64,000 bases of DNA from an uncultured Erysipelotrichaceae bacterium (GCA_902775285.1 CACYLI010000007.1:5533-69532), one strand, 5' to 3'; shown: positions 5,901 through 59,000, counted from the stretch's first letter. Program-made: numbers and translations. The notes: generated from the sequence alone by a model not told the origin.

Positions 5901-6512
5901 ATGTTAAAAATATATGCTTCTGATTTATCATTTGCAAGTCAAGTTTTTAAAAGTGGTTTTGATAGTATAAAAGTAGCTGCTTCTTCAATGCAAACAGAAA
6001 TAGATAAATTTGTAAATAATCCAGAATTAAAGAATAATTTAAAGGGTATAAGTTTTGATACTGCTAGAAGATATATGGACACTTATAAAGATTCTTTTAC
6101 TGGTCTTTCATCTTTATGTGATACATTATCAAGTAATATTGTTTCTGCTAATAATAGTGTTATTTCAGCTATGCAAGGTCATAGTCCAGTTGATATAGAT
6201 TCAGAAGAAGAATTAAAAAGTCAAATCAAAAAACTAAATGATAATATCGCAGCAACAAGGCCTCATTTATATAAAACCAAAAAGACAGTTGATGCTAAAG
6301 GTAGAGTTTGTTTTGTAGAAACAGGAGAAATTAATCAATATTGGTATGATAGAATACAAGAGTATTCTAGAGAAATAAGAGAACTTGACGAACTTATTAA
6401 AATAGTACAGGCTACTAGAGCAGCATATGAAGCAGCAAAAGGTCAAATGAATGGTGAACTTGGAGAAGTATTAAATTCATTTTTAACTAAAACAAGCACA
6501 TTTTTAGGATAG
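5901..6512 (+). CDS. stand-alone LXG-like helical module (paralogous to the C-terminal or middle modules of the 23781 and 59020 proteins)
   Basis: 203 aa and all-helical by composition. LKGISFDTARRYMDTY, PVDIDSEEELKSQIKKLNDNI and LYKTKKTVDAKGRVCFVETGEINQYWY align segment-by-segment with the other two paralogues. Ends in ..FLG, as the 59020 protein ends in ..LLG. Confidence 0.6.
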   Translation: MLKIYASDLSFASQVFKSGFDSIKVAASSMQTEIDKFVNNPELKNNLKGISFDTARRYMDTYKDSFTGLSSLCDTLSSNIVSANNSVISAMQGHSPVDIDSEEELKSQIKKLNDNIAATRPHLYKTKKTVDAKGRVCFVETGEINQYWYDRIQEYSREIRELDELIKIVQATRAAYEAAKGQMNGELGEVLNSFLTKTSTFLG

Positions 6513-6522: not shown

Positions 6523-8187
6523 ATGGAAGAAAAAGAGTTAAATGATAATACTGAATTAGAAGAAAATGGTGAACCTTTAAGATATACAAGTACAGTTACT
6601 ATAGAATACACACATGAAAGAAAAAAATATTCATCTGAAAATTATGAAAATAATAGTAAAGATGGTTTAAATGATGCACTAAATGATATGGGTTTTACTA
6701 GTAATGGAGCGAGTAGAAGTAATACATTAATTATTTATCCTAGAGATTTAGAACCAGGAGAAACACTACCTGTAGTTGTAATGGTTGGTGGAGATAATCA
6801 AAATAGTAGATTTAGGAATGGATATTTTAGAACATATGAGACAGTTAATGGAGAACCATTACCTAGAGCTATTTATGTAGTTAGTGGACCATCAGAAAAT
6901 GAAACACTTGAAGATAACGCTATTCTTGATGCTTATAAATTCTTAGAAAGCCATGGAGTTGATGCTAGTCAAGTAGGCGTAGAAGCATTTAGTGGTGGTG
7001 GAGGAGCAGGACTTATGATTGCTGAACAGGCTGCTCAAGATAATCCAAATATTCCAGTTGTAGTACTTCTTAATGATGCTTCCAAATGGGGACAAGAAGC
7101 TTCTCAAAGTAGACAAGATTATATTAATGGATTAAATCTATATAGTACTGCAAATAGATGTGATAATTTATCAATTGTATATTTTGAGAGTAATGATGAT
7201 AGAGTAACTTCAATGTGGAAAAAAATTAGTGAGAAAGTTGCACAAAGAGCTTATCATGTAACATGGAATTTGAATAGTTATGGTTTTTGCTCACATGCAG
7301 GAGCAAATTATTACTCACAATATTATAATTTTTTATTATCTTTAATGGGTTTAACAGATAATTTAACGGATGAAAAAAATGGTTATAGAGTAAAAAATGG
7401 AGCTGATAATAAAAAAGATTTAGTAGAGTCTATTGGTTCTATGGTATTAGTTGCATATTCTGGTGATTCATTGCAAGAATACTTAAATGGATTCATGACT
7501 CAAATAAATAGTTTTGGATCTGAAGATGCTGGTAGTGCTAGTGGAAATGATCTAATCGAACTTGAAAATAGTATGGCAAATAGTGTTTCTTCTTGTATTT
7601 CAGATATATCTAGTGTTCTATCAATGGATGCATCTTTACTTGCTGGAATTGGTGAAAGTATGGAAGGACTTGATGAAAGACTTAAAAGAATGCAAGATGA
7701 AAATATTTTAGATTTGTTTAAAGATTTTAGTATTCCAGAACATTTAAATAAACCTAATGAAGATATAATTATTGTTGATGATAATGATAGACATATTGAT
7801 TTAGATGATTTAGAAAATGAAGATGATATTCCTATTCAAGATAAACCGGATAGAAATAATTCTCATTCATATACACCACAAAATAGTTTTGACACATCTC
7901 CTATAATAGATTTAAAAAAAGGAGTATATTTACTTGGTGTTAATAATGATGGAGCAAAAGTAATTATAGATTATGATGGTAAAAAAGTAACTAATATGGT
8001 TTATCAATATGATTTTAATGATGCAACTGAAGCACAAACTATAAAGAATATGTATAGTAATTCAAAGTTAGTTAGTGATGTTAAAATATTTAATAATGAT
8101 AAGATAGTAGAAGTTACTTTAAAAAAATCTGTATATTCTAATAAAAGTATAGATGAACTTTCAAAAGGTTTAAATATGTATTCATAA
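6523..8187 (+). CDS. alpha/beta-hydrolase-like (esterase/PHB-depolymerase-like) protein, no signal peptide, with shared helical region and a unique C-terminal domain
   Basis: LPVVVMVGGDNQNS strand, nucleophile-elbow-like AFSGGGG, and a later CSHAG His. Followed by helical region Y shared with the 23781 and 59020 proteins. Starts 10 nt after the LXG-like ORF. Confidence 0.6.
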   Translation: MEEKELNDNTELEENGEPLRYTSTVTIEYTHERKKYSSENYENNSKDGLNDALNDMGFTSNGASRSNTLIIYPRDLEPGETLPVVVMVGGDNQNSRFRNGYFRTYETVNGEPLPRAIYVVSGPSENETLEDNAILDAYKFLESHGVDASQVGVEAFSGGGGAGLMIAEQAAQDNPNIPVVVLLNDASKWGQEASQSRQDYINGLNLYSTANRCDNLSIVYFESNDDRVTSMWKKISEKVAQRAYHVTWNLNSYGFCSHAGANYYSQYYNFLLSLMGLTDNLTDEKNGYRVKNGADNKKDLVESIGSMVLVAYSGDSLQEYLNGFMTQINSFGSEDAGSASGNDLIELENSMANSVSSCISDISSVLSMDASLLAGIGESMEGLDERLKRMQDENILDLFKDFSIPEHLNKPNEDIIIVDDNDRHIDLDDLENEDDIPIQDKPDRNNSHSYTPQNSFDTSPIIDLKKGVYLLGVNNDGAKVIIDYDGKKVTNMVYQYDFNDATEAQTIKNMYSNSKLVSDVKIFNNDKIVEVTLKKSVYSNKSIDELSKGLNMYS

Positions 8188-8188: not shown

Positions 8189-8218
8189 AAAAAATCCTAA
8201 TTATTTAGGATTTTTTCT
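8189..8218. terminator. bidirectional terminator between convergent 6523 gene and rnhC
   Basis: AAATCCTAA-TTAT-TTAGGATTT, flanked by an A-run on one side and a T-run on the other. Confidence 0.7.
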
Positions 8219-9141
8219 GTATTCTTGAAATTTGTTTTAGCTATTTTATTAAGTTCATTTGCTCCATATTTTTTTACTATTTGTTTTCCAACTTCATCAA
8301 CTTTATCATTTGCACCTTTTAAAATAGGCATATTATATTTTTCTGATAGTTTATCCATTTCATTTAAAAATAAATATCTACTTATAACACTTGCAGCAGC
8401 TACACTAAGGTGAGCACTTTCACCTTTAGTTATAAATGTAATTTTAGTTACTTTTTCTGTAATATTTTCTTGTTTTAAATAACTGAAATAGCTTCTTGGA
8501 GTAGTAAATTGATCAACTATTATTTTATGATAAGCAATACCTTTATTTGATAATTCATAAAGTACTTTATTATGAAGTATTGCTTTTATTTTATTCATAT
8601 TGAAACCTTTTTTAGCAAGCTCATTATATTTTTGATTAGAAAGAGTAAATGTTACATATGGTAGTTTTTTCATTATAATAGGTGCACATCTTCTAATTTT
8701 ATCATCAGTCATTTTTTTAGAATCCATTATTTTTAAATCTTCAAGTAGCTTTCTAGTAGATTTATCTACTAGAGTAGCAGTAACAATAATTGGACCAAAA
8801 TAATCTCCAGTACCAACTTCATCACTTCCAATAGCATCATAATAATAGTATTCTTTATTATTAGTTTTTTCTTCTTTTTGTTTAATTTCTTCATCTATGT
8901 TTCTATTATTAAAGTGACTCTCTAAATCTTTCCACATATTAGCTTCTATATCAGCACCAATTCCTTGGAACATTACTTTACCACTTTCATATAAAGTAAT
9001 AACACAATCAAACTCTTTTACTTGAAAAATACTATATGGTGGTTTAGAAGTAACCATATCTTGATAATGTTCTATCATTTTTTCTTTAATATTGTCACTT
9101 ACTTTAAATACAATAGTTTTTTGTTTATCCACTCTTATCAC
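8197..9141 (-). CDS. rnhC: ribonuclease HIII
   Basis: 314 aa. Has an N-terminal ~85-aa RNase HIII-specific domain followed by the DEVGTGDYFGP RNase H active-site motif. Confidence 0.88.
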   Translation of the reverse strand: MIRVDKQKTIVFKVSDNIKEKMIEHYQDMVTSKPPYSIFQVKEFDCVITLYESGKVMFQGIGADIEANMWKDLESHFNNRNIDEEIKQKEEKTNNKEYYYYDAIGSDEVGTGDYFGPIIVTATLVDKSTRKLLEDLKIMDSKKMTDDKIRRCAPIIMKKLPYVTFTLSNQKYNELAKKGFNMNKIKAILHNKVLYELSNKGIAYHKIIVDQFTTPRSYFSYLKQENITEKVTKITFITKGESAHLSVAAASVISRYLFLNEMDKLSEKYNMPILKGANDKVDEVGKQIVKKYGANELNKIAKTNFKNTEKILNN

Positions 9142-9164: not shown

Positions 9165-10376
9165 TTATTTATCTAATTTAAGTGAATTATTAGAATTATA
9201 TTTATATTCTAATTCTTTAAATACTTCATTAATAAAAATATAAGTGTTAGGGCATTCTAATTTAAATGTATTATCATTATTTAAATATCTTTTAACAGAT
9301 TCTGCGAAGTATTCGTGTTCATCTTTTGTACAATGATCGAATAATCTATATCTTGATAAATCTATTTTTTTAGAATATAGATTATTTGCTTCCATTTGAT
9401 AAATTCTAATAAAATCAAATGATGAACTAATATAATCTAAGTATACATCTATCATATGACCTATTTCATGATAAAAAGAAATAGATATTCCATCTCTATG
9501 TAATATAATGCTTTTTTCATTTTCTAAATACCATCCTCCATCTGGTAGACTATCTACTATATAAAGTTCATGATTAGTATAATAAAATATTTCCTTAATG
9601 TATTCTGGAAGTAATGAAAATAATCTTTCAAAATTAGCTAAAGCAACAATTGTATTGTTTCTTTTATCATCTTTAACACTTCTAAATAATCTTTCATTTT
9701 TATTAAATTTTACAAGCTGTATTTCTTCGTTATCATTTTCTTTAATAACATCAAATTTATTCATAAAATCTTTTTCAATTGTATTATCAAAAGTATAAGT
9801 AGTATCCATTACATGAATAATAGAGTTTTCATAATTATTATCTTCATTAATAAAACCATTAATTCTAGGAGAAATAGTGTATTCTTTTAATTTAGGACAA
9901 TTGAGAATATTTCCAATCCATATAGAATTTGGTGCATGAAGTGATTTTAAATTAGGATTGTTTCTAAAAGCATAATGATCTATTTCTGTAGTATTTGGCG
10001 CATAAACATTTTCAATAAAAGTATTATCTTTAAAACATTCATAATTAATTTTATATACATTTGATGGTACAATTACATTTTTTGTATTTCCATAATAATC
10101 ATATAAAGTGTTTTCTAGAATTATAAAATAAGAAACATTATCAAAATCAGTATTGTTTAATATATTGATACTTGCGTAAGTAAGAGTTTGAAAACTATTT
10201 AAATCATAAATCTTTTTAACATTAAATTCTTCATAATACTTTTTATCTAATTTAATTATAATTGGTCCATTATTTGATACTATTCCAAGAACAAATTTAT
10301 CATTCTCTTTTACTTTAAAACATAAATTATTGTATTTGTAAACAAGACTTTTATATATGTCTATTAATTTTTCCAT
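9165..10376 (-). CDS. anthrax-lethal-factor-like (ATLF/M34-type) zinc metallopeptidase domain fused to BspA-type leucine-rich repeats; no signal peptide
   Basis: HEIGHMID followed by HEYFAES and TYIFINEVF resembles LF HEFGH...EFFAE...TFQFINDQI. The N-terminal half has LRR_5-like repeats (VPSNVYKINYECFKDN..IENVYAPNTTEIDHYAFRNN). The GAGGTG RBS overlaps the track start, so ATG 10376 is preferred. Confidence 0.6.
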   Translation of the reverse strand: MEKLIDIYKSLVYKYNNLCFKVKENDKFVLGIVSNNGPIIIKLDKKYYEEFNVKKIYDLNSFQTLTYASINILNNTDFDNVSYFIILENTLYDYYGNTKNVIVPSNVYKINYECFKDNTFIENVYAPNTTEIDHYAFRNNPNLKSLHAPNSIWIGNILNCPKLKEYTISPRINGFINEDNNYENSIIHVMDTTYTFDNTIEKDFMNKFDVIKENDNEEIQLVKFNKNERLFRSVKDDKRNNTIVALANFERLFSLLPEYIKEIFYYTNHELYIVDSLPDGGWYLENEKSIILHRDGISISFYHEIGHMIDVYLDYISSSFDFIRIYQMEANNLYSKKIDLSRYRLFDHCTKDEHEYFAESVKRYLNNDNTFKLECPNTYIFINEVFKELEYKYNSNNSLKLDK

Positions 10377-10467
10377 AATTAACACCTCAAAATTGCATTA
10401 TATTATAACATTATGTAAAAAAATTATCAATAAAAATTGTTTGGGTATTTTATCTAAAAAATAGTTA

Positions 10468-18788: not shown

Positions 18789-19121
18789 ATGTTTAAAAAG
18801 AAACTAAAAGGATTTGAATTTGAACAAAAGTGTATTGTATCTAATATGATTAGTGTTGGTGGTTGGAAAGTAGGATATATGTATAGAGAAAAGCCTTCAA
18901 TAAAAGATGATAGTGGATGGAGATTTTTTAAAGGGAATGAAGATGAAAGTTTTACAGAAAACGCAGATAACTTTAGAATATTTACATTATCTTCTTTAAT
19001 AGATATGGATGATAGTGTAGTTGATTATTTACAAATGAATGAAGGTACATCTTTAATTAGAATAGAGAATAATAAATTTATAATTGATGATAAAGAAAAA
19101 GAGATATTTATGACTAAATAA
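18789..19121 (+). CDS. DUF2185/Imm33-like small protein (possible orphan polymorphic-toxin immunity protein)
   Basis: 110 aa. The pattern C.VS..I..GGWKVGYMYRE.P....DSGWRFF.G.ED matches the DUF2185 (Imm33) family as I recall it. Needs an HMM check. Confidence 0.55.
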   Translation: MFKKKLKGFEFEQKCIVSNMISVGGWKVGYMYREKPSIKDDSGWRFFKGNEDESFTENADNFRIFTLSSLIDMDDSVVDYLQMNEGTSLIRIENNKFIIDDKEKEIFMTK

Positions 19122-22010: not shown

Positions 22011-22019
22011 TGTTATAAT
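22011..22019 (+). promoter_or_regulatory. extended -10 element (TGtTATAAT) upstream of the DUF1003 gene
   Basis: TGTTATAAT lies directly after the upstream terminator, 24 nt before ATG 22043. Confidence 0.45.
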
Positions 22020-22042
22020 ATGTGTGTATCATGGAGGAACTT

Positions 22043-22573: not shown

Positions 22574-22587
22574 AAGGGTGAAGTTAT

Positions 22588-23604: not shown

Positions 23605-23627
23605 GATAACAATTGTTATCTTTTTTA
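23603..23627 (+). terminator. terminator after the CNNM/CBS gene
   Basis: AAGATAACA-AT-TGTTATCTT followed by TTTT. Confidence 0.6.
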
Positions 23628-23732
23628 ATATATTTTTTTTTAAAGAAATAAAAACTTATTATGAAGAAGATGATATGATTCCAGCTTATATTTATTCAAA
23701 ATATTTGTAAAGAAACAGATATGAAATATAAA

Positions 23733-23761
23733 TTGAAAAAGTAGTTTTTTTTTTATATAAT
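23733..23761 (+). promoter_or_regulatory. sigma-A-type promoter of the 1230-aa gene (TTGAAA-17-TATAAT) with a T10 tract in the spacer
   Basis: TTGAAA at 23733-38, T10 at 23745-54, TATAAT at 23756-61. AGGTG RBS, then ATG 23781. Confidence 0.55.
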
Positions 23762-23780
23762 TTATATAGTAGGTGATTAT

Positions 23781-26700
23781 ATGGCAGATGTGTATATTCC
23801 AAAAACAGCAGAGGAAAAAGTAGATTTTGTTTATGAATTCATGAAAGAAAATGAAAGCTTTTTTGGTAAGAGTGAATCATATAATGTAAAAGCTATTGAA
23901 ACAGAGGATGGAGTAGGAATAGTTGCTGAGTATAAAAGCCCTAATGGTACAGGAGTTAATTATTTATATATAAATCCCAAAACTGATTTTGAAAATATTA
24001 CAATGTTTGAAAATCCAATACCAGATTCTTGCTATAATGGTGATCGTCTTGTATCTTCTACGCCATATGGTACATATGGTAATAGACACAATAGAATATT
24101 AAAGGGAGATTTTTCAAGTGTTCCAGAAAATGCAATAATGATTCCTTCAAGTAAATATGAAACTGGTACAAGCAAAACAGTGTATAGTCCAGATGAAGTT
24201 GCGGTTGCTTTTATTAATAAAGTAGGAAATAAGCCTGAAATGATTGCCACTGTTGGATGTAGTAATGGTGGAGGTGGGTCTTTAAAATCAGGAATTTTTG
24301 AAGCATTAAATCATCCAGGTGTTAAAGTAGAAGCATGGGGATTAGATGGATATTATCAAGAATTTTATCCAGAAAAAATATTGGATTCTCTTAGTGAAGA
24401 AGAAATGGAAACGCTAAGAGAGAATTTAACTTTTGTAAATGTTATTCCAAATGAAAAATGTCAAGGCGGTATTGCTAATGGAAGGCCAAGATATAATTGG
24501 AAAAATGAACATGAAACAAGTCAAACAATGACAAAATATGTTTTGGAATTAGAAAAAAGAGGAATCAAAAATATTATATATACTGCTGATTTTGAAGGAG
24601 TACATGAAAACTGGCATGGAGCACATTTAGATATGTATCAATTTGGATCTAATTTGCCTGATTTTATGCTTCATAATACAGATGAAATCAAATGTAGTGG
24701 TGAATATGGAGTTATAGATGGAGCTTATACTTATGATGGAATTAGAAGAATATTAGTTCCTCTTGGTGTAAAAGATGATATATCTCAAAAAGTAGATTTT
24801 AGTAATATACCAGATTATTCTAAATCTTATATTAAATATGAAAATGAAATTGAATTATTAAATAATATTAGAGACAATTTAGAAATGTTTTCAAATTCTA
24901 ATATGGAAACAAAAGGAAGTGATAGTTTTCCTGGGATACTATTTAGTATGACTAATGGAGTTTCTTCTTCTAATGATTCATTTATTAGTAAAACAAAAGA
25001 AGAAACTAATGCACTTGCATCTGTAATAGGATCTTATATTATATTAGATAAAGAACTTGCAAGTGATGCTGATAATCTAAAAGATAATTTAGGTACTTCT
25101 TTATTTGACTATAATAGAGTCTCAGTAGAAGGGCCAACTTATACGCCATTAACTTTTTCTAATATAAATGGTGAGATAGATTTTAATGAGTTTAATAATA
25201 TGTTTAATGGTACATCTTTATGTGGACCAATCGCATCTTTTATAGGTGAAAATAAACAAAATATAACATCTTTAAAATCATCTTTAACAGCATTAATTGA
25301 TAGTGAATATTATTCTTCACCTGGGCTTGGTTATATAAAGTCTTCAATTGATAGATATTCTATTCTATGTGATTGTAATTTAGAATTATTAGATAGCATG
25401 GAGTCGTCTTTTACAAAAGCTCTAAAAAAAGTTTATGATGCGATGGATGGAAAGAGTATTGATTTAAGCATAGAAGATGAATTAAACGATAAGATATTAA
25501 AATGTACTCAAGATATAGATAATTTGATTGCCGCTAATAGTGAAAAAAGAACAGTTCTAGTAGCAACTCCAGTTACTATACCTGGAAAACAGATAATAGT
25601 TTATGTTCCTAAAAAAGAATATGTTTTATCAGAGTCAGCAAGAGCTGAAAATGAAAGAATAATTGAATCTAATAGAAAAGATATTGAAGATTTTAAAATA
25701 GAATTACAGAGAATTGCTGATGTAAAAGAAGCAATAAAAGAAGCTGAAGAATTAATGGATGATTTAAATATTGAAATCCAACAATATAATTCTAAAGTAG
25801 AACATTTAACCCCAACACCAACTTTAAGTTTATATGATGTTGAGAGATTAAAACGTGGGGAAAATCTTGGATTTAATCCAACTATATATGATGTAGGAGA
25901 TACTAGTAAACCAGAAATAATAGAAACAAATGAAGAAGAATCAAAAGTAGAGCCTTCTGTAACTCCTTCGCCATCTCCAACCCCAACACCAGCTCCTTCT
26001 CCAAAAGTAGAAGAACCATCGAATGTTTCAGAACCTATAGAAAAAGAGACTGAAAAAACTTCAACATCAAGTACAAGTAGTACAGGTTTTGGAAATGGTT
26101 TCTTAGCAGGATATAAGCCTGGAGAAGGAATGAGTGAAAGTAGAATTCCAACTTCTACTGAAAAAGAAGACACTCCACAAGTAGATATAGGTGATAGAGC
26201 ATCTCATGCATTTAGTGGGCCTGATTTTATAACATCTGCTTCTGGAGTACTTGGTAGTGTAGGTGCTACAGCTATAGGAGAAACTTTAAATAATTCTAAA
26301 AGTCCTCAAACAAAAGCTTCTGATACTGGATTTGGAAATAATTTCTTAGCTGGATCTAAACCTGAAATCACACCAAAAGAAGAAACTATTAGTTCTTCGC
26401 AAGTTGTTGAAACAGAAGAAAAACCACAAGTAGATATAGGTGATAGAGCATCTCACGCATTTAGTGGACCAGATTTTGAAAGTAATGATAATAAATCAAT
26501 ACCTGATTTAATAAAAGATTTATTTCCAACAAAAGATAAAGAAGATACATCAAAAGATAGTAATGATATCGGATTTGGAAACAATTTCTTAGCTGGATCT
26601 AAACCTGAAGTCAAATTAAAAGATGAAATACAAAGACCAGTAGTTGAGACGCAAAGGCCACAAGTAGACATAGGTGATAGAGGCTCACATGCATTTAGTG

Positions 26701-27473
26701 GACCAAATTTTGAAAGAACAGATAAAAAAGATCAAACTACTATTAGTACAGAAAAACCTGTTATTAATGAACCAAATGTTGAAGAAATAAAACCAGTTGT
26801 TACTCCACAGAATGTTATACCAAGTGTTGATAATAATCCACATATAGAAGAAAAGACACCAAGTCAACTAACAGGAAGTGTTCCACAATGGCAACCAACT
26901 CCAACACCACAACAACATGATCCAGTTGTTAAAACACCTGAAGTTGAACCAGAAGTTATCATTGATACACCAACTCCAGAAATTGAACCAGAAGTTATTA
27001 TTGAACCACCAACACCGGAAGTTGAACCTGAAATTATTCCTGAACCAATTATAGAACCAGTGGTTATAGTTGATGAACCAACAATTGATCCAACACCAGA
27101 AGTAATAGTAGATACACCAGTAGTTGAGCCAACTCCAGAAAAAGTACCAGAATCAATACAAACTACTCCAAAAACTCCAACTAAACCTACACCACAAGTT
27201 ACTATTCCTTCAAGCCCAATAATAGAAGAACCAATAACAAGTGATATTAATTATGATAATATAGAAATAATAAATGCAGATAATAGTGTTAAACCAGATT
27301 TAACTAATGAAATAATTAATAATACTTTAGAAGATAAAAAAGAGAATAATTCTAATGTATTAAAAGATATTGGTATTATTGCTGGAGTAGGAGCATTAGC
27401 GGGTGCTAGTGCATATGGAATATATAAAGCAAGCGAAAATAAAAAAGATGAAGATGAAGAAAAGACAGAATAA
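23781..27473 (+). CDS. 1230-aa tail-anchored surface-type protein: alpha/beta-hydrolase-like N-domain, LXG-like helical module, 3 tandem ~81-aa repeats, Pro/Glu-rich stalk, C-terminal TM helix; no signal peptide
   Basis: GCSNGGGG nucleophile elbow and a later WHGAH. SPGLGYIKSSIDRY and SIDLSIEDELNDKILKCTQDIDNLI align with the paralogues. Repeats carry GFGNxFLAG and PQVDIGDRxSHAFSGPxF. TPEVEPEVII-type stalk, then IGIIAGVGALAGASAYGIY followed by a charged tail. Confidence 0.75.
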   Translation: MADVYIPKTAEEKVDFVYEFMKENESFFGKSESYNVKAIETEDGVGIVAEYKSPNGTGVNYLYINPKTDFENITMFENPIPDSCYNGDRLVSSTPYGTYGNRHNRILKGDFSSVPENAIMIPSSKYETGTSKTVYSPDEVAVAFINKVGNKPEMIATVGCSNGGGGSLKSGIFEALNHPGVKVEAWGLDGYYQEFYPEKILDSLSEEEMETLRENLTFVNVIPNEKCQGGIANGRPRYNWKNEHETSQTMTKYVLELEKRGIKNIIYTADFEGVHENWHGAHLDMYQFGSNLPDFMLHNTDEIKCSGEYGVIDGAYTYDGIRRILVPLGVKDDISQKVDFSNIPDYSKSYIKYENEIELLNNIRDNLEMFSNSNMETKGSDSFPGILFSMTNGVSSSNDSFISKTKEETNALASVIGSYIILDKELASDADNLKDNLGTSLFDYNRVSVEGPTYTPLTFSNINGEIDFNEFNNMFNGTSLCGPIASFIGENKQNITSLKSSLTALIDSEYYSSPGLGYIKSSIDRYSILCDCNLELLDSMESSFTKALKKVYDAMDGKSIDLSIEDELNDKILKCTQDIDNLIAANSEKRTVLVATPVTIPGKQIIVYVPKKEYVLSESARAENERIIESNRKDIEDFKIELQRIADVKEAIKEAEELMDDLNIEIQQYNSKVEHLTPTPTLSLYDVERLKRGENLGFNPTIYDVGDTSKPEIIETNEEESKVEPSVTPSPSPTPTPAPSPKVEEPSNVSEPIEKETEKTSTSSTSSTGFGNGFLAGYKPGEGMSESRIPTSTEKEDTPQVDIGDRASHAFSGPDFITSASGVLGSVGATAIGETLNNSKSPQTKASDTGFGNNFLAGSKPEITPKEETISSSQVVETEEKPQVDIGDRASHAFSGPDFESNDNKSIPDLIKDLFPTKDKEDTSKDSNDIGFGNNFLAGSKPEVKLKDEIQRPVVETQRPQVDIGDRGSHAFSGPNFERTDKKDQTTISTEKPVINEPNVEEIKPVVTPQNVIPSVDNNPHIEEKTPSQLTGSVPQWQPTPTPQQHDPVVKTPEVEPEVIIDTPTPEIEPEVIIEPPTPEVEPEIIPEPIIEPVVIVDEPTIDPTPEVIVDTPVVEPTPEKVPESIQTTPKTPTKPTPQVTIPSSPIIEEPITSDINYDNIEIINADNSVKPDLTNEIINNTLEDKKENNSNVLKDIGIIAGVGALAGASAYGIYKASENKKDEDEEKTE
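26085..26711 (+). repeat. three in-frame tandem ~243-bp (~81-aa) repeats inside the 1230-aa gene
   Basis: GGxTTTGGAAAyrrTTTCTTAGC starts at 26085, 26328 and 26571. CCACAAGTAGAyATAGGTGATAGAG starts at 26175, 26424 and 26658. Confidence 0.85.
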
Positions 27474-27485
27474 TCTGTCTTTTTA
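27462..27485 (+). terminator. terminator after the 1230-aa gene
   Basis: AAGACAGA-ATAA-TCTGTCTT followed by TTT. Confidence 0.65.
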
Positions 27486-27545
27486 ATTAATTTGAAATAC
27501 AGTAGATTTTTTAATATAATATTTAATGTAAAAGAGGTGATATTA

Positions 27546-38802: not shown

Positions 38803-40101
38803 ATGGAAAAGAATAAAAATGGATTTATTTCAATGACGCTTGTATATACATTTTTAATAGTATTCTTATTTTTAATGTTAGCAATTTTAACAGCATATAT
38901 ACAAAAAGATAAATTTATGGAAACAATAGATAGTAAAATATCAGAAGATATTGGTTATGATAAACAAACAAAAACAACGGTATTAAATACTATAATATCT
39001 GATAACACACCTGTTTCAATAGATAATGAGAAAAATAATATATATTTATTTGATATAGCAAATGCAGATTTTGGCAATGGAAATGGACTTTATTACACAA
39101 CAAAAGTAGAAATATCTGATGAAAATAATGATGGAGTATCATCAAGAATGTATTTTTTTAGAGGGACTGTTGAAAATAATCATTTGATATTTGCAAAAAA
39201 ATGTTGGAGAATTGTAAGAACAAATGAAAATGGAAGTATAAGACTTAGATATAATGGAGAACCAATATATCTTAATAATACACCAAATTGTCCAACAGTA
39301 GATATGTTAAAAGATTATGCAGCAGGACCTAATTATAAACAAAGTGATGTGAGTAATGCAAGTAGTGAAACTGATAAAGATAAAGGAGTAGCAGTATTTA
39401 CAAATGGAGGATTACAAGATAAAGCATATCATTATGCTTCAATAGGAAAAGCAAAATTTAATGAAAATTCAAGTAGTAATTTAGGACTTAAATATGTAAA
39501 CGATTCAAATACATTTAGTCCAACTAAGGCAATTCTAGATACATGGTTTGTAAATAATTTAAAAAATTATATGGATTATATATCACCATCATCATTTTGT
39601 AATGATTATGAAAAACAAAATTCAAAATCAATAGTACCTGTTGCAACACCAGGAAGTAGTAAAAACAAATATAAAAAATCAGATTGGACAAATACAGTTA
39701 GTTTAAAATGCTCTAATAATGAAAATTATACGACAACATTGGATATAACTGGAAACAAACAATTATACTATCCAATTGGATTATTAAGTGCTCAAGAAAT
39801 AGCTTTAGCAGGAGGATATTTAACAAATGGAACTGATCAATATAAAGGTGGTGTATATGGAATTGATAATAAAAACTTTTATTTATATACAGGAACATCT
39901 TTTTGGACAATGAGTCCATATGAATCTAATGAAACTGGTGCAAAAGTTATATATTTTGATAAAGATGGATATATGCAAGGGGATAAAAGCGCTGCATTAG
40001 TTAGTAATTCATATGATGTAATACCAGTAATATCAATAAATGGTAATAGTGTAATATCAAGTGGAAAAGGTACATCAAATAATCCATATATAGTGAGGTG
40101 A
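38803..40101 (+). CDS. large prepilin-like (class III signal-like) secreted protein lacking Glu+5
   Basis: MEKNKNG|FISMTLVYTFLIVFLFLMLAIL N-terminus. The C-terminal FWTMSP...VIPVISI...GKGTSNNPYIV module is shared with the 21626 and 46907 proteins. Confidence 0.6.
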   Translation: MEKNKNGFISMTLVYTFLIVFLFLMLAILTAYIQKDKFMETIDSKISEDIGYDKQTKTTVLNTIISDNTPVSIDNEKNNIYLFDIANADFGNGNGLYYTTKVEISDENNDGVSSRMYFFRGTVENNHLIFAKKCWRIVRTNENGSIRLRYNGEPIYLNNTPNCPTVDMLKDYAAGPNYKQSDVSNASSETDKDKGVAVFTNGGLQDKAYHYASIGKAKFNENSSSNLGLKYVNDSNTFSPTKAILDTWFVNNLKNYMDYISPSSFCNDYEKQNSKSIVPVATPGSSKNKYKKSDWTNTVSLKCSNNENYTTTLDITGNKQLYYPIGLLSAQEIALAGGYLTNGTDQYKGGVYGIDNKNFYLYTGTSFWTMSPYESNETGAKVIYFDKDGYMQGDKSAALVSNSYDVIPVISINGNSVISSGKGTSNNPYIVR

Positions 40102-40106
40102 AACAA

Positions 40107-41360
40107 ATGAAAAAAAATGGTTTTGTATTTGTTGAAAGTATAGTGGTATTAATGGTAGTAGCTTTATCAGTAGCAATGCTCATAGCAAGTTATTCACTAG
40201 TATCAAGAAAAACAAAAGAAAAAGAAAATTACGATAAAGCAAGTGATAGATACTTATTATATTCAATAAGTAATTTAGGAGCAAGCGATAATTGTAATTA
40301 TGCTACTGCCAGTACGACAATAGATGAATGTAATAAACTAAATATAGAAGTAAATATAAATAATTGTGAAAGTAGTAAAACTGGATATTTAATGAAAGAT
40401 TGTAAGAAAGTATTTGAAGATACAAATCTTAAAAATTTATATGTAGTACAAAATGTAAGAAATACATTAAATGATCTTGATAATGAAGGTAATAAAATAA
40501 CAAATGGACAATCTGCTGTAGAAAAATATACACCTGGAACAATAGAATATATGAAAACCTTAAAAAAATGTAATGATTTAAATGAATATTATGAAGATCC
40601 AGAAACAGGTAAAATTACATATATTAATAAAAATAAATCAACAGATATTTGTCAAAATCCAATAACATATATGATAGGAGAATTTGAAAGAGGAGGAGAA
40701 TATTATTATGCATCTATTGAACTAGGTGAAATAACTTTAGATTCTACTTCAAATTCTACTTCAAAAAAAGTTGGATGGGTAATAGAAGGATCTTTATATC
40801 CAATTAATAAACAAAAGTGGTATTTTTATGATGACAATGGTGTAAGATTAACCGGAGGCCCTTGGTATCTAACAGCTCACACTCCTAGAATAGGAAATTT
40901 TGACAACAATATAAATGGTTCTGGTTATTATCATGTAAATGGATTAAATGAGTATTATTTTGATGAATATGGAGTAATGTATACAGGATGGAAAAAAGTT
41001 GGAAATGAAATGAAATATTTTAAGAATGTTGATACAGATGGTGCCAAAGGAGTAGATGGTGGAACTGTTAGTGGTTTTGTAACAATGCAAGATGGAAAGA
41101 TTTATTATTTTACTTCTTTGCAAATTCCAAATATAACTTTTGGTTCTATTAAAACTACAGTGTACACTACTGATAAATGTTATGTATGTCCTGATGATAA
41201 ATATGATGCAAGTAAATGTACAGAACCATGCCCTGATACATTAACTGGAACTGAAGTTATTAGAAGTATTATTAGAAATACTGATGGAAAAGGTGTTTTA
41301 TTTGATAATGAAGGTAATTGTATTGAAGGAACTTGTAACTTCTATAAGAAAATAAATTAA
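40107..41360 (+). CDS. prepilin-type N-terminal cleavage/methylation protein with C-terminal choline-binding-type cell-wall repeats and Cys-rich tail
   Basis: MKKNG|FVFVESIVVL is the canonical G/FxxxE motif. GAGGTG lies 6 nt before ATG 40107. CW_binding-like repeats (GWVIEG..KWYFYDDNGVRLTG, EYYFDEYGVMYTGWKKVG, DGKIYYF). Confidence 0.7.
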   Translation: MKKNGFVFVESIVVLMVVALSVAMLIASYSLVSRKTKEKENYDKASDRYLLYSISNLGASDNCNYATASTTIDECNKLNIEVNINNCESSKTGYLMKDCKKVFEDTNLKNLYVVQNVRNTLNDLDNEGNKITNGQSAVEKYTPGTIEYMKTLKKCNDLNEYYEDPETGKITYINKNKSTDICQNPITYMIGEFERGGEYYYASIELGEITLDSTSNSTSKKVGWVIEGSLYPINKQKWYFYDDNGVRLTGGPWYLTAHTPRIGNFDNNINGSGYYHVNGLNEYYFDEYGVMYTGWKKVGNEMKYFKNVDTDGAKGVDGGTVSGFVTMQDGKIYYFTSLQIPNITFGSIKTTVYTTDKCYVCPDDKYDASKCTEPCPDTLTGTEVIRSIIRNTDGKGVLFDNEGNCIEGTCNFYKKIN

Positions 41361-43336: not shown

Positions 43337-44566
43337 GTGATAATATTGAATTATAATATAAAAAACACTTTATTATTTATTAATGAAAATTTTGATATGG
43401 AATATGATAAATGGAATAAAAATGATAAATATGGTAGTTTTTTACTAGGAGAATCAAGTGAATCTTTTTTATCTATTGGTTTATCTAAAAGAAAAGTAAT
43501 TATTGATAAATCTAAAGTAATAAAAATACTTAATAAACATAAAAGTATGTCTAATGATATTATTAAAAAAATACCATTAATATTAAGTAATCCATTATTG
43601 ATTATGAAATCTAAAACAGTAAGTGGAAGAATAGTTGTATTTGGAGAAGTTTTTGATGAACTTAAAACTCCTGTTATGATAGCTTTAGAATTAAATCCAT
43701 ATGAAAATAAATATAATAGTGAAAAAATATATAAAGTAGCTAGTGCTTATGGAAAAGAAAGCTTAAAAAAGTATTTTGAAGTTTGTGAAGATATTATCTA
43801 TGTTGGGAATAAGAATAGAATAAATGAATGGTTGGATGAAACAGGATATAAGTTAGCTTTAAATAAAAGTAATAATGTTAAAATAAAAGATATTATTGAA
43901 AGTGAAAGACCTAGAGAAAGAGCTATTAAGTATGGTGTTGAGAATTTATCAAATGAAGAGTTACTTGCTATTATACTTAAAACTGGTACTAAAGAGTTAA
44001 ATGTAAAAGAATTATCAAATAAAATACTTAGTAAAATAAAAAATATACAAGATTTAAAAAACGTTACTTCTTCTTTTTTAATGCAAATTAAGGGAATTGG
44101 TAAAGTAAAAGCAATTACTTTGTTATCTTCTTTAGAACTTGGTAAAAGAGTATATTATAGTGTAGTAAAAGAAAGCATTAGATTAAATAATTCTTCTAAA
44201 GTATATGATTATTTTAAAGATTTATTTATTAATGAAAAACAAGAATATTTTTATGCTATATATTTAGATTCTAAATCTAAACTTATATCATATAAGCTAT
44301 TATTTAAAGGAACTATTAATACTTCTTGTGTTCATCCAAGAGAAGTATTTAAATATGCTTTTTTAGAAAGTGCTGTATCTATAATTGTTATACATAATCA
44401 TCCATCTGGAGACCCTACACCTAGTATTCAAGATAAGGAAGTAACTTCTTCACTTTTTGAAATAGGGAAAATTATGTCACTTCCAGTAGTTGATCATATA
44501 GTATTTGGTGATAATAAATATTTTAGTTTTTATGAATATATTAATAATAAAGAGAATAATATTTAA
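43337..44566 (+). CDS. radC: RadC (JAB/MPN) protein with an extra ~185-aa N-terminal domain
   Basis: The C-terminal half is canonical RadC (ERPRERAIKYG..LSNEELLAIILKTG, GIGKVKA, HNHPSGDPTPSIQD). The N-terminal extension is unrelated to RadC. The start is uncertain (GTG 43337 or ATG 43397). Confidence 0.8.
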   Translation: MIILNYNIKNTLLFINENFDMEYDKWNKNDKYGSFLLGESSESFLSIGLSKRKVIIDKSKVIKILNKHKSMSNDIIKKIPLILSNPLLIMKSKTVSGRIVVFGEVFDELKTPVMIALELNPYENKYNSEKIYKVASAYGKESLKKYFEVCEDIIYVGNKNRINEWLDETGYKLALNKSNNVKIKDIIESERPRERAIKYGVENLSNEELLAIILKTGTKELNVKELSNKILSKIKNIQDLKNVTSSFLMQIKGIGKVKAITLLSSLELGKRVYYSVVKESIRLNNSSKVYDYFKDLFINEKQEYFYAIYLDSKSKLISYKLLFKGTINTSCVHPREVFKYAFLESAVSIIVIHNHPSGDPTPSIQDKEVTSSLFEIGKIMSLPVVDHIVFGDNKYFSFYEYINNKENNI

Positions 44567-46889: not shown

Positions 46890-46906
46890 TATAATAGGTG
46901 AATAAT

Positions 46907-47587
46907 ATGAAAAATATAAAAAAACTTTTATTATTATTAATAATACTTTTAATACCAATATTTATAAGTGCTAAAACAGATACATATGAGAGTTCTGTAA
47001 GTAAAGCAAACCAATATATATTTAATAGTGTATTTGAAAGTAGAAGTAAATATTTGTATTATGATAATCCATTATATGGAGTAGATAATAGTGGAAATGT
47101 AATGACATCTCTTGGATATACAACTGGAGGAATGCTAAATGCATATGAATATGAAGTGAGCTTGAAAAATGGATTTAGTTATTTAGTAATACCTAATAAG
47201 TTTTGGACAATGAGCATAAGTGATAATAATTTACCTTATTATTTAGATGGAAAAGGAATTGCACTAAATAATCCATGGGAATTTGTGAATGCAAATTATG
47301 CAATACTTACAACAAGTGATATAAATTTAGGTTATTTTTGTAGTGATAATAATGAATGTAGTGGAGGAAATAGAAAAGCAAGAGAAGAAAAAGTAATAAA
47401 TAGTGATAAAAGTGTAACATTTGATATCTTTGTAAAGAAAGGATATGAAAATGATACAAGTGATGGATGTAAACTTATTAAAGTTAGTTCAACACCATTT
47501 ACATCTACTGAAAAAACAACATATAAAATAGAAAATATTAATGGAGATTATAATTGTGTAGTTAAATTAAAGCAAAAACATACATGA
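46907..47587 (+). CDS. secreted protein with FWTMS module; possibly the detached N-terminal part of the downstream repeat protein
   Basis: Signal peptide KKLLLLLIILLIPIFISAKT and an FWTMSISDNN motif as in the 38803 protein. AGGTG lies 6 nt before ATG 46907. The stop overlaps the next start (ATGA). Confidence 0.6.
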   Translation: MKNIKKLLLLLIILLIPIFISAKTDTYESSVSKANQYIFNSVFESRSKYLYYDNPLYGVDNSGNVMTSLGYTTGGMLNAYEYEVSLKNGFSYLVIPNKFWTMSISDNNLPYYLDGKGIALNNPWEFVNANYAILTTSDINLGYFCSDNNECSGGNRKAREEKVINSDKSVTFDIFVKKGYENDTSDGCKLIKVSSTPFTSTEKTTYKIENINGDYNCVVKLKQKHT

Positions 47588-49311
47588 TAACATATAATAA
47601 AAATACAACAGATACTGTAAGTAATATGCCAGTAAATCAATCAAAAACACATGGAACAAATATTACATTAAGTAATAGTACACCAACTAGAACAGGATAT
47701 ACATTTGATGGATGGTATGAATATTCTAGTTGTACTGGAACAATGTATTCTCAAGGTGGAAATTATACAAATAATTCTAATGTAACTTTATATGCAAAAT
47801 GGAAAATAAATTCACATGTTATAACATTTAATGCTAATGGTGGAAAATTTAGTAATGGAACAGATACATTTAAAATAACACAAAATTATGGTACGTCTAT
47901 TACAAAACCCGCAGATCCAACAAGAATAGGACATACATTTAAAGGTTGGGATAAAGAAGTACCTTCAACAATGCCAGATCAAGATATAACTATAACAGCA
48001 AAAGAATGGCAAATAAATCAATATACAATAACATTTGATACAAAAGGTGGAAGTACAATATCACCAATAACACAAAACTATGGTACCTCTATTACAAAAC
48101 CTGCAAATCCAACAAAAACAGGTTATACATTTGCTGGATGGGATAAAACAATACCATCAACTATGCCAGCTCAAAGCATGACAATAACTGCAAAAAATTG
48201 GACTCCAAAAACAGTAAAAGTAACATTTAATAGAAATACAAGTTCAAGTGATACGACAACTTTAAGTCAAACATTTACATATGCAGCATCAGGAAATAAA
48301 TTTGGATATAATACTAATGGAAATCCAACATGGGCTCAAACAGGACAATTTGGTGGATGGGATAGAACAGGTTATAAATTACTTGGTTGGTCAACTGATA
48401 AAAATGCTACTACAGCAACATATAGTGTATATTCTGGAGTTAATGATAGTTGGATTAACTCAAATTCTCCATCAGTTACATTGTATGCTATATGGCAAAT
48501 AAATCAATATACAATAACATTTGATACAAAAGGTGGAAGTACAATATCACCAATAACACAAAACTATGGTACATCTATTACAAAACCTGCAAATCCAACA
48601 AAAACAGGGTATACATTTACAGGATGGGATAAAACAATACCATCAACTATGCCAGCTCAAAGCATGACAGTAATTGCTCAATGGAAAATAATTGATAAAC
48701 CTGTGTATATCTATTATAATCCAAATAGTGGAACTGTTGGAGGAACATATAAAACATATAATGGTTGGGTATCAAGCAATGGTTCAAGTTATTTTAGACA
48801 GACAGTACAAAAAGGAGATTCAACTGATTTATATAATTATGAAACATTTTCAATTACTAGAAGTGGATATAAAGTATATGGAGGTAATGAGTGGTGTATT
48901 AATATAAGTTCTCAACCAACATGTTTTAATCAAGATACAAAATATACTTATAATGATTATAAAAGTTTTGCAACTGAAAAAACTGATCATTACGAATTAA
49001 ATTTATACCTTAATTGGCAACAATTAGTCACATGTTGTTGGTATGATAGTATAAAACATGGTGGAGCTGGTTGTGGTGGAACTGATCAAAAATGGGTTAG
49101 AGATGGTTCAAATGCTTTCTGCTACTGGTATAATCAAACATCTTGTCCTGCAAATTGGGCTCCACTCGAAACACAGGGGTGTTATAATTTCTTCGAACAT
49201 CAATATGCTCCAATTACAGGCGGTGATGGAGGTAAATGTAAATGTATACTATATAAAGTAATTACCGGTGTTGGTCGAATTTGCGATGGATGTGATTGTG
49301 TTCCATGTTAA
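47584..49311 (+). CDS. Listeria-Bacteroides (Flg_new-type) repeat protein with Cys-rich C-terminal domain; no signal peptide of its own
   Basis: At least 5 repeats of the type T(R/K)xGYTFxGW...MPxxxxT(I/L)xAxW. The last ~95 aa contain 13 Cys (CCWYD...CGG...CDGCDCVPC). Confidence 0.75.
   Translation: MITYNKNTTDTVSNMPVNQSKTHGTNITLSNSTPTRTGYTFDGWYEYSSCTGTMYSQGGNYTNNSNVTLYAKWKINSHVITFNANGGKFSNGTDTFKITQNYGTSITKPADPTRIGHTFKGWDKEVPSTMPDQDITITAKEWQINQYTITFDTKGGSTISPITQNYGTSITKPANPTKTGYTFAGWDKTIPSTMPAQSMTITAKNWTPKTVKVTFNRNTSSSDTTTLSQTFTYAASGNKFGYNTNGNPTWAQTGQFGGWDRTGYKLLGWSTDKNATTATYSVYSGVNDSWINSNSPSVTLYAIWQINQYTITFDTKGGSTISPITQNYGTSITKPANPTKTGYTFTGWDKTIPSTMPAQSMTVIAQWKIIDKPVYIYYNPNSGTVGGTYKTYNGWVSSNGSSYFRQTVQKGDSTDLYNYETFSITRSGYKVYGGNEWCINISSQPTCFNQDTKYTYNDYKSFATEKTDHYELNLYLNWQQLVTCCWYDSIKHGGAGCGGTDQKWVRDGSNAFCYWYNQTSCPANWAPLETQGCYNFFEHQYAPITGGDGGKCKCILYKVITGVGRICDGCDCVPC
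48007..48191 (+). repeat. copy 1 of a near-identical 185-bp intragenic direct repeat (Flg_new repeat unit)
   Basis: Matches 48493-48677 with 6 mismatches by my count. The offset of 486 bp equals 162 codons. Confidence 0.85.
48493..48677 (+). repeat. copy 2 of the 185-bp intragenic direct repeat
   Basis: See copy 1. Confidence 0.85.
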
Positions 49312-57847: not shown

Positions 57848-57909
57848 TGTAACTAAAAATAAATATAATTCATAACTTATTAATGAAATTAGATAAAGGA
57901 GTGAATTAT

Positions 57910-58335
57910 ATGTGTAATAACAATAATAATGAATGTAATAATTGTATTATGGAAATATTACAAGTTATTAATGTACTTCAATCAAATGCTTGTCCAGATA
58001 ACTGTCTTCTTTCTTGTGATAGACCTGCTTTAGGAGGAGGACCAAATTGCGTTATATGTAATACTAGACCAATAATGTTATATACTTGCGCTGGTAATGG
58101 TACACCTCTTTCAATGCCTACTACAAGAGTAGAAACATCTGCTACTACAAGTAGTGTATTTAGAGTAGAAAAGGTTAGTGGATGTTGTTGTACATTTAGA
58201 GTACTTGCACCAAATCCAGATACAACATCTACTTATCCATATGTAGCTACTGATTCATTGTTTACAATGGATACTAATTGTTTATGTGCAGTTAGATGTT
58301 TAAATGACACATTTGTTGAATGCACAACATTATAA
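57910..58335 (+). CDS. CotZ/CotY-like cysteine-rich spore coat/exosporium protein
   Basis: Cys-rich (NECNNCIMEILQVINVLQ..., CCCTFRV, CLCAVRC), resembling the CotY/CotZ family. AAAGGAGTG precedes ATG 57910. Confidence 0.65.
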   Translation: MCNNNNNECNNCIMEILQVINVLQSNACPDNCLLSCDRPALGGGPNCVICNTRPIMLYTCAGNGTPLSMPTTRVETSATTSSVFRVEKVSGCCCTFRVLAPNPDTTSTYPYVATDSLFTMDTNCLCAVRCLNDTFVECTTL

Positions 58336-58397: not shown

Positions 58398-59000
58398 ATG
58401 AAAGAATATGAAAATGAATTATATAGTAAAGGAATTAAATATATAGCAGGAATTGATGAAGTGGGTAGAGGTCCTTTAGTTGGCCCAGTTGTGACATGTG
58501 CAGTTATTTTACCAATTGATTTTTACGATGAAAGAATAAATGATTCTAAAAAATTAAGTGAGAAAAAAAGAGAATTATTATATGATGTTATTATGGAAAA
58601 TGCTATAAGTGTTGGAATTGGAATGTCTAGTGAAGAAGTAATTGATGAAATAAACATTTTAGAAGCAACTAAGAAAGCTATGTTAGAAGCAATTGATAAT
58701 CTAAGTGTTAAACCAGAACATTTATTAATTGATGCTGTTAAATTAGATACATCTATTCCACAGACTTCTATTATTAAAGGAGACCAAAAAAGTTTAAGTA
58801 TTGCATCTGCATCTATTATAGCTAAAGTTACAAGAGATAGAATGATGATAGAACTTGATAAAAAGCATCCCGAATATGATTTTATTCATAATAAAGGATA
58901 TGGAACAAAAAAACACATAGAAGCTTTATATAAATATGGAGCATTAAAAGAACATAGAAAAACATTTGAACCAGTTTCTAGTATTATAAATAATAATTAG
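58398..59000 (+). CDS. rnhB: ribonuclease HII
   Basis: [23 protein letters not shown] and [10 protein letters not shown] motifs. Confidence 0.93.

Follow-up and report, generated by a model that had tools for sequence, protein, structure and literature searches.

How does a large protein that looks like a stalked surface enzyme leave the cell when it has no signal peptide? The question is raised by a gene for a protein of 1230 amino acids (aa) on a DNA stretch of 64,000 nt, here called the window, from an uncultured Erysipelotrichaceae bacterium (GCA_902775285.1 CACYLI010000007.1:5533-69532). An earlier note on this DNA had seen in the protein a membrane-anchored hydrolase which is exported independently of Sec, with an internal module resembling the LXG domain as the only candidate export signal. 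We suggest that a type VIIb secretion system (T7SSb) exports the protein as an orphan substrate which stays tethered to the membrane of its producer, and we put the probability of this reading at roughly 55%. Two parts of the protein, a helical unit and the C-terminal anchor segment, have homologues inside the T7SSb locus of a related bacterium.

The protein starts with MADVYIPKTAEEKVDFVYEF and its N-terminus is hydrophilic, as had been said before. Within the first 50 residues the maximal Kyte–Doolittle (KD) value over 10 residues is 0.54, so that there is no hydrophobic core, compared with 3.4 for genuine signal peptides encoded in the same window. The annotated start has good support from a ribosome-binding site and a promoter-like site (Table 1). 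We looked for a missed upstream start which could supply a signal peptide, but an in-frame stop lies about 12 codons 5′ of the start; thus any extension is ruled out and a hidden signal peptide is impossible. The gene is not a chance open reading frame (ORF), since the identical protein (P0001) is present on 4–5 metagenome contigs and homologues exist. Overall the protein is very acidic (211 Asp+Glu versus 112 Lys+Arg). All strings quoted in the earlier note were recovered, at aa 1, 726–741, 1052 onwards, 1197–1215 and 1216–1230.

The centre of the protein is formed by a helical module of about 340 aa (aa ~345–690) with strongly conserved motifs, which we call module X and which as a whole matches the hidden Markov model (HMM) of its family with E=1e-109. 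Module X is a fusion of two units, a cargo-attached first part (X1) and an LXG-like second part (X2) which is also a free protein in a T7SSb locus, because stand-alone X2 proteins start exactly at the most conserved motif of the module (GEIDFNEFNNMFNGTSLCGP), with which X2 begins. The stand-alone proteins comprise about 200 aa, begin with M-x-I-Y-x-S-D-L and carry L-(K/Q)-G at about residue 47. P0002 and P0006 have the same motif where the sequences align, and there the 1230-aa protein reads S-S-P-G (aa 512–515). X1 is also found without X2, fused to the anchor-bearing proteins of the two loci described next and, as a weak match, to the window ORF 6523..8187.

The C-terminal hydrophobic segment carries the motif AG[VI]G..GA.AYG[VI], which is common to the 1230-aa protein and four relatives (P0007, P0010 and one protein each at the loci L105 and L106). 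We therefore scanned 185,579 species genomes for this motif at the DNA level and found it in two places only, both in the metagenome-assembled genome (MAG) RUG10929, the closest relative as judged by its Lon protein (82% identical). One locus, L106, holds stand-alone X2 genes, WXG100-type genes, genes for small helical proteins, a gene for an anchor-bearing protein and an EssC/YukB homologue (Table 1). Its first X2 protein aligns colinearly with LXG (aa 28–133 against LXG 26–134), and the anchor-bearing protein has a peptidoglycan glucosaminidase domain (PF01832, E=6.8e-10) between X1 and a stalk composed of TPSPTP and PEPV. The second locus, L105, encodes another head–X1–stalk–anchor protein of 705 aa, followed by a stand-alone X2 gene; its tail is 49% identical to that of the 1230-aa protein over 37 aa. 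Comparative genomics thus links the family to type VII secretion, since stand-alone X2 relatives and an anchor-bearing hydrolase-like protein lie beside WXG100 and EssC genes, which partly supports the LXG-like module as an export signal and the non-Sec route of the earlier note.

Table 1. Features of the gene for the 1230-aa protein, of locus L106 of RUG10929 and of family genes in the window
Feature	Residues	Coordinates	Strand	Basis or remark
Coding sequence (CDS) of the 1230-aa protein, incl. stop codon	1-1230	23781..27473	+	ORF translation
α/β serine-hydrolase-like N-terminal domain (putative)	~5-310	23793..24710	+	phmmer relatives P0003, P0004 over aa 5-308
X1, two helices, one of ~50 aa	~345-435	24813..25085	+	HMM positions 2-~100; AlphaFold2 (AF2) helices 354-368, 383-432
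X2, LXG-like helical bundle	464-690	25170..25850	+	family HMM; AF2 helices with predicted local distance difference test (pLDDT) 75-90
Pro/Thr/Ser linker SVTPSPSPTPTPAPSP	726-741	25956..26003	+	
Three ~80-aa repeats	769-977	26085..26711	+	no Pfam match
Pro/Glu/Val/Ile/Thr-rich stalk	~996-1196	26766..27368	+	
Gly/Ala-rich hydrophobic segment IGIIAGVGALAGASAYGIY, putative membrane anchor	1197-1215	27369..27425	+	
Charged tail KASENKKDEDEEKTE, Lys-rich beside the anchor, then acidic	1216-1230	27426..27470	+	
Promoter-like site TTGAAA-17-TATAAT		23733..23761	+	consensus match only, 11/12 positions
Ribosome-binding site AGGTGA, 4 nt 5′ of ATG		23771..23776	+	
Terminator-like hairpin overlapping the stop codon of the CDS		27459..27484	+	
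Stand-alone X2, 226 aa		L106:113-793		module X HMM E=6e-38; Pfam LXG E=0.0016, 18.8 bits, below gathering score
Small helical protein, 122 aa		L106:805-1173		no family match
WXG100-like, 103 aa		L106:1270-1581		Pfam E=0.0023
WXG100, 103 aa		L106:1596-1907		PF06013 E=1.7e-10, 41 bits, above gathering score; PDB 3gvm E=3e-6
916-aa protein without signal peptide: hydrolase-like head, X1, glucosaminidase, stalk, anchor motif, acidic tail		L106:2001-4751		
Second stand-alone X2, 202 aa		L106:4751-5359		31% identical to window ORF 5901..6512, E=2e-18
Small helical protein, 122 aa		L106:5443-5811		related to L106:805-1173, E=2.6e-10
EssC/YukB homologue, at least 717 aa		L106:5819 to locus end		B. subtilis YukB/EssC PDB 9qks E=6e-40; also EccC3
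Paralogue, 679 aa: hydrolase-like N-domain (SGFSGSGP) and module X, ends right after		59020..61059	+	HMM E=7e-34 over aa 335-676; no Pfam match
Stand-alone X2 (LXG-like), 203 aa, starts MLKIYASDLS, L-K-G motif		5901..6512	+	module X HMM E=6e-9
Paralogue-like, 554 aa: hydrolase-like N-domain (EAFSGGGGAG), weak X1, C-terminal domain common to L048 and L053		6523..8187	+	HMM positions 18-92, E=2.2

The protein belongs to a very rare and unannotated family: roughly 15 billion proteins contain about 25 of its sequences. When aa 1–720 were compared exhaustively with 1.84 billion representative proteins by phmmer, only 11 relatives were found; one more locus was found among the 185,579 species genomes and 10 in JGI metagenomes. 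A signal peptide is present in none of the about 25 members. Pfam and NCBIfam searches with the 1230-aa protein gave no significant match and a search for related loci with this protein alone gave none. A word-index homology search returned only the protein itself for the full-length query and nothing for the alignment and repeat-region queries, probably because low-complexity words swamped it.

The architecture of the family is polymorphic. A variable hydrolase-like head (with an Amidase_2 remnant in P0006) is followed by module X, after which there are four possibilities: the chain stops, or it continues with a C39-like peptidase, with a small α/β domain, or with an S/T/P-rich region that ends in the same Gly/Ala hydrophobic segment and an acidic tail. 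The latter ending is seen in P0007 (1221 aa), which has a C39-like peptidase region in the place taken by the glucosaminidase in the L106 protein, and in P0010 (1465 aa). The tail anchor therefore does co-occur with module X in relatives, a check which the earlier note had proposed. That note had also called the protein a paralogue, and this holds by profile: the HMM of module X finds the ORFs 59020..61059 and 5901..6512, whereas tblastn within the window finds no paralogue. The former is a minimal "reverse" architecture, and there module X forms the C-terminal end of the protein as it does in P0004, P0005 and P0009, whereas the 1230-aa protein continues for another 540 residues. The ORFs 5901..6512 and 6523..8187 are adjacent and form a split pair, a stand-alone X2 and then a head with a weak X1. 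We note that an RNase H gene lies directly beside each of the two paralogue loci of the window (8197..9141 and 58398..59000), and that a tandem paralogue of 709 aa (L003:791-2917, module X E=2e-29) is located directly 5′ of the gene for the anchor-bearing P0010.

At the N-terminus, the hydrolase claimed by the earlier note finds support in a conserved serine of the catalytic type. Ser161 (codon 24261–24263) sits in a GxSxG-like nucleophile elbow (G-C-S-N-G within VGCSNGGGG, aa 158–166) and is invariant in a 7-sequence alignment, across which the candidate residues Asp189 and His275/279 are mostly conserved. AF2 with a 12-sequence alignment models the head as an α/β fold (pLDDT 65–88). The best Foldseek matches of this model are esterases, albeit weak ones (3fcx, E=6.7e-3, probability 0.90, TM-score 0.3), and no PDB entry matched at E<=1e-3. 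Sequence searches of the head against Pfam, including its lipase families, gave no match, and PDB sequence and profile searches gave coiled-coil noise only. From sequence and model we suggest that the domain is serine-hydrolase-like and may be an enzyme of the esterase/lipase type.

Behind module X the protein becomes repetitive. Each of the three repeats reads GFGN(N/G)FLAG(S/Y)KP and, after about 25 aa, PQVDIGDR(A/G)SHAFSGP(D/N)F (they carry GFGNNFLAGSKPE, then PQVDIGDRASHAFSGPDF); the counterparts in the distant members P0010, L049 and P0011 read GGTFLGD... VDIGDAGKNALSGAE. The Pro/Thr/Ser segment and the long Pro/Glu/Val/Ile stalk are present as described, the latter with a TPEVEPEVII... 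stretch from aa 1052. Among 165 residues the stalk contains 37 P, 24 E, 21 V, 21 I and 20 T, and Tandem Repeats Finder (TRF) detects 39-nt tandem repeats at 26933–27047 and 27066–27140 which code for TPEVEPEVIIEPP-type units. All five anchor-bearing proteins have an S/T/P-rich stalk of 200–500 aa directly before the anchor.

The single C-terminal transmembrane (TM) helix of the earlier note stands in part. Its motif is conserved in four relatives, and the segment at aa 1197–1215, with small-xxx-small (glycine-zipper-like) faces, is the most hydrophobic 19-mer of the protein; its hydrophobicity, however, is marginal (KD19 1.56 versus 2.0–3.1 for real TM helices of this genome). The short charged tail is present as described, and the anchor-bearing relatives have acidic tails of 35–65 aa. 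A sortase or other sorting signal was considered and rejected: there is no LPXTG-type motif before aa 1197, the tail is net acidic and a signal peptide is missing. NCBIfam sorting-domain profiles did not match the protein at E<=1.

The position of the segment, 15 residues from the C-terminus, and the missing signal peptide fit a classical tail-anchored protein; such a protein should have a single, sufficiently hydrophobic TM helix within about 30 residues of its end, and here the hydrophobicity is marginal. The bulk of 1190 residues could be cytoplasmic at the inner face of the membrane, with no export at all, and this would be the simplest account of the missing signal peptide in a genome region without secretion genes nearby. 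Moreover, some of the attached domain types have cytoplasmic homologues, namely AmpD-type Amidase_2 and the C39 domain of ABC exporters. We nevertheless consider such an arrangement unlikely. Parts of the family lie inside a type VII locus, in L106 a glucosaminidase precedes the anchor, the long stalks are mucin-like or rich in Pro, the strongly acidic tails of the relatives are unfavourable for post-translational translocation, and positive charges cluster C-terminal of the segment. The side N-terminal of the anchor probably faces the wall, as the glucosaminidase of L106 and the C39-like peptidase of P0007 sit there. Likewise a C-in orientation fits since Lys/Arg follow directly on the hydrophobic segment and the acidic tails are unlikely to be translocated. 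Taken together, the placement of wall hydrolases, the long S/T/P-rich stalks, Lys/Arg after the segment and the acidic tails favour an N-out/C-in topology.

The same segment could serve another purpose. The entire protein might be released as a type VII toxin, and the Gly/Ala zipper would then be a weapon or docking element which inserts from outside into membranes of the target or of the producer, as in TspA or TelE. A marginally hydrophobic, small-xxx-small-rich and sequence-conserved segment is what one typically sees in helices that self-associate or form channels, TspA is a peripheral, extracellular protein in spite of its predicted C-terminal TM segments (PMC7456083), and the link to type VII secretion through the RUG10929 loci is shared with the tethered form. 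On the other hand, the Pro/Ser/Thr stalk of 200–500 aa before the segment and the long acidic tail after it resemble a wall-spanning tether and a cytoplasmic tail, and there is no immunity gene 3′ of any of the five anchor-bearing genes. A released toxin thus appears improbable to us, and we prefer a substrate that remains tethered to its producer.

Concerning module X, its X2 part contains a hydrophobic beta-hairpin at aa 590–613, second in hydrophobicity (KD 1.35) among the segments of the protein. One may ask whether module X is the body of an alpha-pore-forming toxin of the ClyA/XaxA type with this hairpin as the membrane-inserting tongue. There is a weak NCBIfam match to alpha-xenorhabdolysin subunit A (NF033928, E=4.9e-4) and Foldseek gives weak matches to AhlB and PaxB (E about 0.1). 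The NF033928 match scores only 19.5 bits with a cut-off of 125, so that we rejected this identity; BAR domains score equally in Foldseek, which indicates a generic signal of long helices, and the hairpin is hydrophilic in all other family members. A pore-forming body is accordingly the least probable of the alternatives, and we regard it as scarcely credible. Between the last two long helices of X2, the hairpin of P0008, P0012 and P0010 has a CX4C...CX3C four-cysteine pattern reminiscent of a zinc knuckle or a disulphide staple.

A further alternative is that the protein leaves the cell without a dedicated system, by a lysis/holin-type route or as a spore-surface protein made by the mother cell, and then binds to the envelope via its repeats or its anchor. 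Some wall hydrolases without signal peptide are released by a lysis/holin-type route. The lineage has sporulation-type genes, namely a CotZ-like ORF in the window and, recognised by eye, a SpoIVA-like ORF in L105, and a holin-family gene is located two genes 3′ of P0010. Neither a holin nor a sporulation neighbour is conserved across the loci, though, and searches of the viral, phage and plasmid collections IMG/VR, INPHARED and PLSDB gave no family match; the specific association is that with WXG100 and EssC. Release of this kind is therefore very unlikely in our view, and export of a tethered protein by a T7SSb remains our preferred explanation.

A number of observations weigh against this explanation. 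The module X of the 1230-aa protein itself matches Pfam LXG (PF04740) only with E=0.27–0.35 and 11 bits compared with a gathering score of 26.5; among the family modules, 2 of 11 reach E<=1 with this profile (best 0.018). Module X and X2 searches of NCBIfam and of PDB sequences and profiles gave no match to LXG or WXG100, only coiled-coil noise in the PDB, and structure comparison of module X with Foldseek gave no significant match to LXG or WXG100 structures. The layout differs from LXG proteins too, as the module is internal and behind an enzyme domain and not N-terminal. The AF2 model of the whole protein has a mean pLDDT of 61, that is moderate confidence with the 12-sequence alignment, and is too poor to place the turn of a helical hairpin at the L-x-G position (a single-sequence model with pLDDT 37 was unusable). 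In a search of the window, of the 10 kb before it (~74 kb of contig sequence in all) and of the surroundings of the fused-type homologues, we detected no gene for EssC, WXG100 or a Lap-like protein; nor did we detect small helical ORFs beside the gene or homologues of the WXG100 or small helical proteins of RUG10929 in the window. The partner genes typical of LXG proteins, which are present at L106, do not lie beside the gene. A T7SS in the genome under study is thus only assumed from a relative of a different species. Also, no immunity-type gene is conserved 3′ of the fused-type loci. The C-terminal segment is too weakly hydrophobic for a confident call as a TM helix, and its summed Hessa free energy (dG) is +3.2 kcal/mol compared with −4.7 to +1.0 for bona fide TM helices and signal peptides of the same genome. 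Finally, we know of no mechanism that would let a T7SS hand over a C-terminal helix to the bilayer.

We suggest that export of the tethered substrate could proceed in the following steps. The 1230-aa protein would be made without a signal peptide. Module X, composed of X1 and a diverged LXG-like X2, might then act as a rod-like targeting element which is recognised by the EssC ATPase. The serine hydrolase head, module X and the three repeats would be exported and the stalk of about 200 Pro/Glu/Val/Ile-rich residues would cross the wall. The Gly/Ala-rich C-terminal helix would be left in the membrane, and its tail, first Lys-rich and then acidic, would lie in the cytoplasm. As a result an enzyme of the esterase/lipase type would be displayed at the end of a stalk, where it could serve contact-dependent attack on neighbours or the processing of envelope or nutrients. 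The protein would be a fused version which is encoded apart from the secretion genes, as is TspA in Staphylococcus aureus. The arrangement in RUG10929, where the cargo bears X1 and a free LXG-like protein provides X2, would imply an adaptor that targets a membrane-anchored cargo lacking LXG in trans. More generally, it is a tentative idea, with somewhat less than even odds, that a T7SSb exports a multidomain protein of 1200 residues with the targeting module in mid-chain and leaves a C-terminal Gly/Ala helix in the membrane, giving a stalked surface enzyme or a tethered toxin.

The host is a firmicute of low G+C content with a cell wall. The window, with about 24% G+C, contains housekeeping genes for MutS, L19, signal peptidase, FtsW/RodA, Lon, LytR-CpsA-Psr and polysaccharide synthesis. 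Its Lon protein is 74–82% identical to that of uncultured gut and rumen MAGs labelled Bacilli, Tenericutes, Erysipelotrichaceae, Clostridium sp. CAG:524 and CAG:1000. Promoter-like consensus sites such as the one upstream of the gene are not more frequent in the region than expected from shuffled sequence. The gene is flanked by genes for a CNNM/CBS transporter and an ASCH-APH protein. We rejected a conserved operon partner, since the neighbours differ at every fused-type locus and are unrelated housekeeping genes, as well as an origin from a phage, plasmid or integrative and conjugative element, since the neighbours are housekeeping genes and the mobile-element collections have no match. An orthologue at the same chromosomal site was also rejected: 42 related species are syntenic for GTPase–Lon–LysM only and have no module X within 10 kb. 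The block from ~18700 to 33200, which holds the gene and spans from Imm33, two P-type ATPases, DUF1003, CNNM and ASCH-APH to ADP-ribosylglycohydrolase, has no synteny in these 42 species and looks like a variable region because the relatives keep GTPase–Lon–LysM only. The gene and its paralogues are slightly richer in G+C (0.28–0.29 versus 0.21–0.25).

Some further genes deserve mention. The Imm33 gene of this block (18789..19121, Pfam E=1.4e-26) is an orphan of an immunity family, 4.6 kb 5′ of the gene for the 1230-aa protein and with no toxin gene beside it. Prepilin-type (N_methyl) genes adjoin three of the five anchor-bearing genes (L002:5339-6649, L003:7408-7896, L105:2013-2480). This adjacency could be chance or a real link; such genes are very common in the lineage, which has many unusually large pilin-like proteins (150–436 aa), some with choline-binding repeats (window 38803..41360, L059:2874-4821). 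A 409-aa ORF (window 43337..44566) is an unusual fusion of a phage MuF C-terminal domain with UPF0758 and a RadC-like JAB domain. Surface-type repeat proteins without a signal peptide of their own are also encoded by a Flg_new ORF (575 aa, 46898..49311), which overlaps by 4 nt an upstream ORF of 229 aa with a signal peptide, and by an ORF with BspA-type leucine-rich repeats (406 aa, 9165..10385, minus strand). The CotZ-like spore-coat ORF (57883..58335, Pfam E=1.8e-14) and the SpoIVA-like ORF (L105:16-1113) hint that these MAGs, with labels such as Tenericutes or Bacilli, may sporulate.

If our proposal is true, the position of the targeting signal would be flexible, with N-terminal, C-terminal and internal placements. 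The descriptions of T7SSb substrates which we found concern soluble toxins or small helical proteins, and the handling of large cargo and the delivery of membrane proteins are at issue. A T7SS could then build tethered surface structures which resemble display as in contact-dependent inhibition (CDI) and the tail-anchored proteins that depend on twin-arginine translocation (Tat), and little-known gut and rumen Bacilli with reduced genomes would use type VII secretion for more than diffusible toxins. In addition, domain databases and searches for T7SS effectors could make use of the unannotated domain of about 340 aa and of the conserved anchor motif which the family offers.

How does the protein compare with known systems? 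Canonical LXG toxins (PF04740), which have Lap partners, are like the stand-alone X2 proteins in length (about 200 aa), in the M-x-I-Y-x-S-D-L start, in L-(K/Q)-G and in having WXG100, small helical and EssC neighbours; the 1230-aa protein departs from them by its internal module behind an enzyme, by S-S-P-G and by the insignificant profile match. Close in design are the "reverse" T7SSb lipases TslA (Tsl1) and TslM (Tsl2) of S. aureus, which have an N-terminal enzyme and then an LXG-like domain (PMC10730906, PMC13560087). They share with the family the lack of a signal peptide, an N-terminal α/β hydrolase of the GxSxG type (putative in the family), the following helical LXG-like domain and the presence of several paralogues per genome, and the paralogue 59020..61059 has exactly their two-domain layout. 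In contrast, the 1230-aa protein has a larger helical module, followed by repeats, stalk, anchor and tail, it has no Tla/WXG100 partner or Til-type immunity gene beside it, and a comparison via Pfam, NCBIfam and PDB gave no shared family and no detectable similarity in sequence.

TspA, a membrane-depolarising T7SS substrate at the outer face of the S. aureus membrane, is likewise encoded away from the ess locus (PMC7456083, PMC10765036) and has predicted C-terminal membrane segments. It differs by its N-terminal LXG domain, its adjacent immunity gene, the lack of a stalk and of an enzyme head, and by being peripheral, that is extractable with urea (PMC7456083). The T7SS locus of S. aureus also encodes a CHAP peptidoglycan hydrolase, EssH (PMC10765036), and EssH resembles the glucosaminidase protein of L106 as a wall hydrolase within a T7SS locus. 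It showed no relation to the family in any comparison made, and the 1230-aa protein has no recognisable wall-hydrolase domain. That a C-terminal helix can stay behind in the membrane when a translocase moves folded proteins is demonstrated by the Tat-dependent tail-anchored proteins (PMC10924467). As proposed for the 1230-aa protein, their folded N-terminal bulk is exported and a single C-terminal helix remains; unlike it, they rely on an N-terminal twin-arginine signal peptide, either their own or that of a partner (PMC10924467).

The earlier remark that no description of this kind was known has therefore to be narrowed. Substrates with an N-terminal lipase and an LXG-like domain are known, as is a substrate at the outer face of the membrane; the literature searched reports no T7SS substrate that has both a stalk and an anchor at its C-terminus. 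Thus, the reverse arrangement of T7SS substrates is already known from the S. aureus lipases, and what appears to be new, as judged by this literature, is that an LXG-like module which lies inside the chain or is split over two genes is combined with a stalk and a conserved membrane anchor at the C-terminus.

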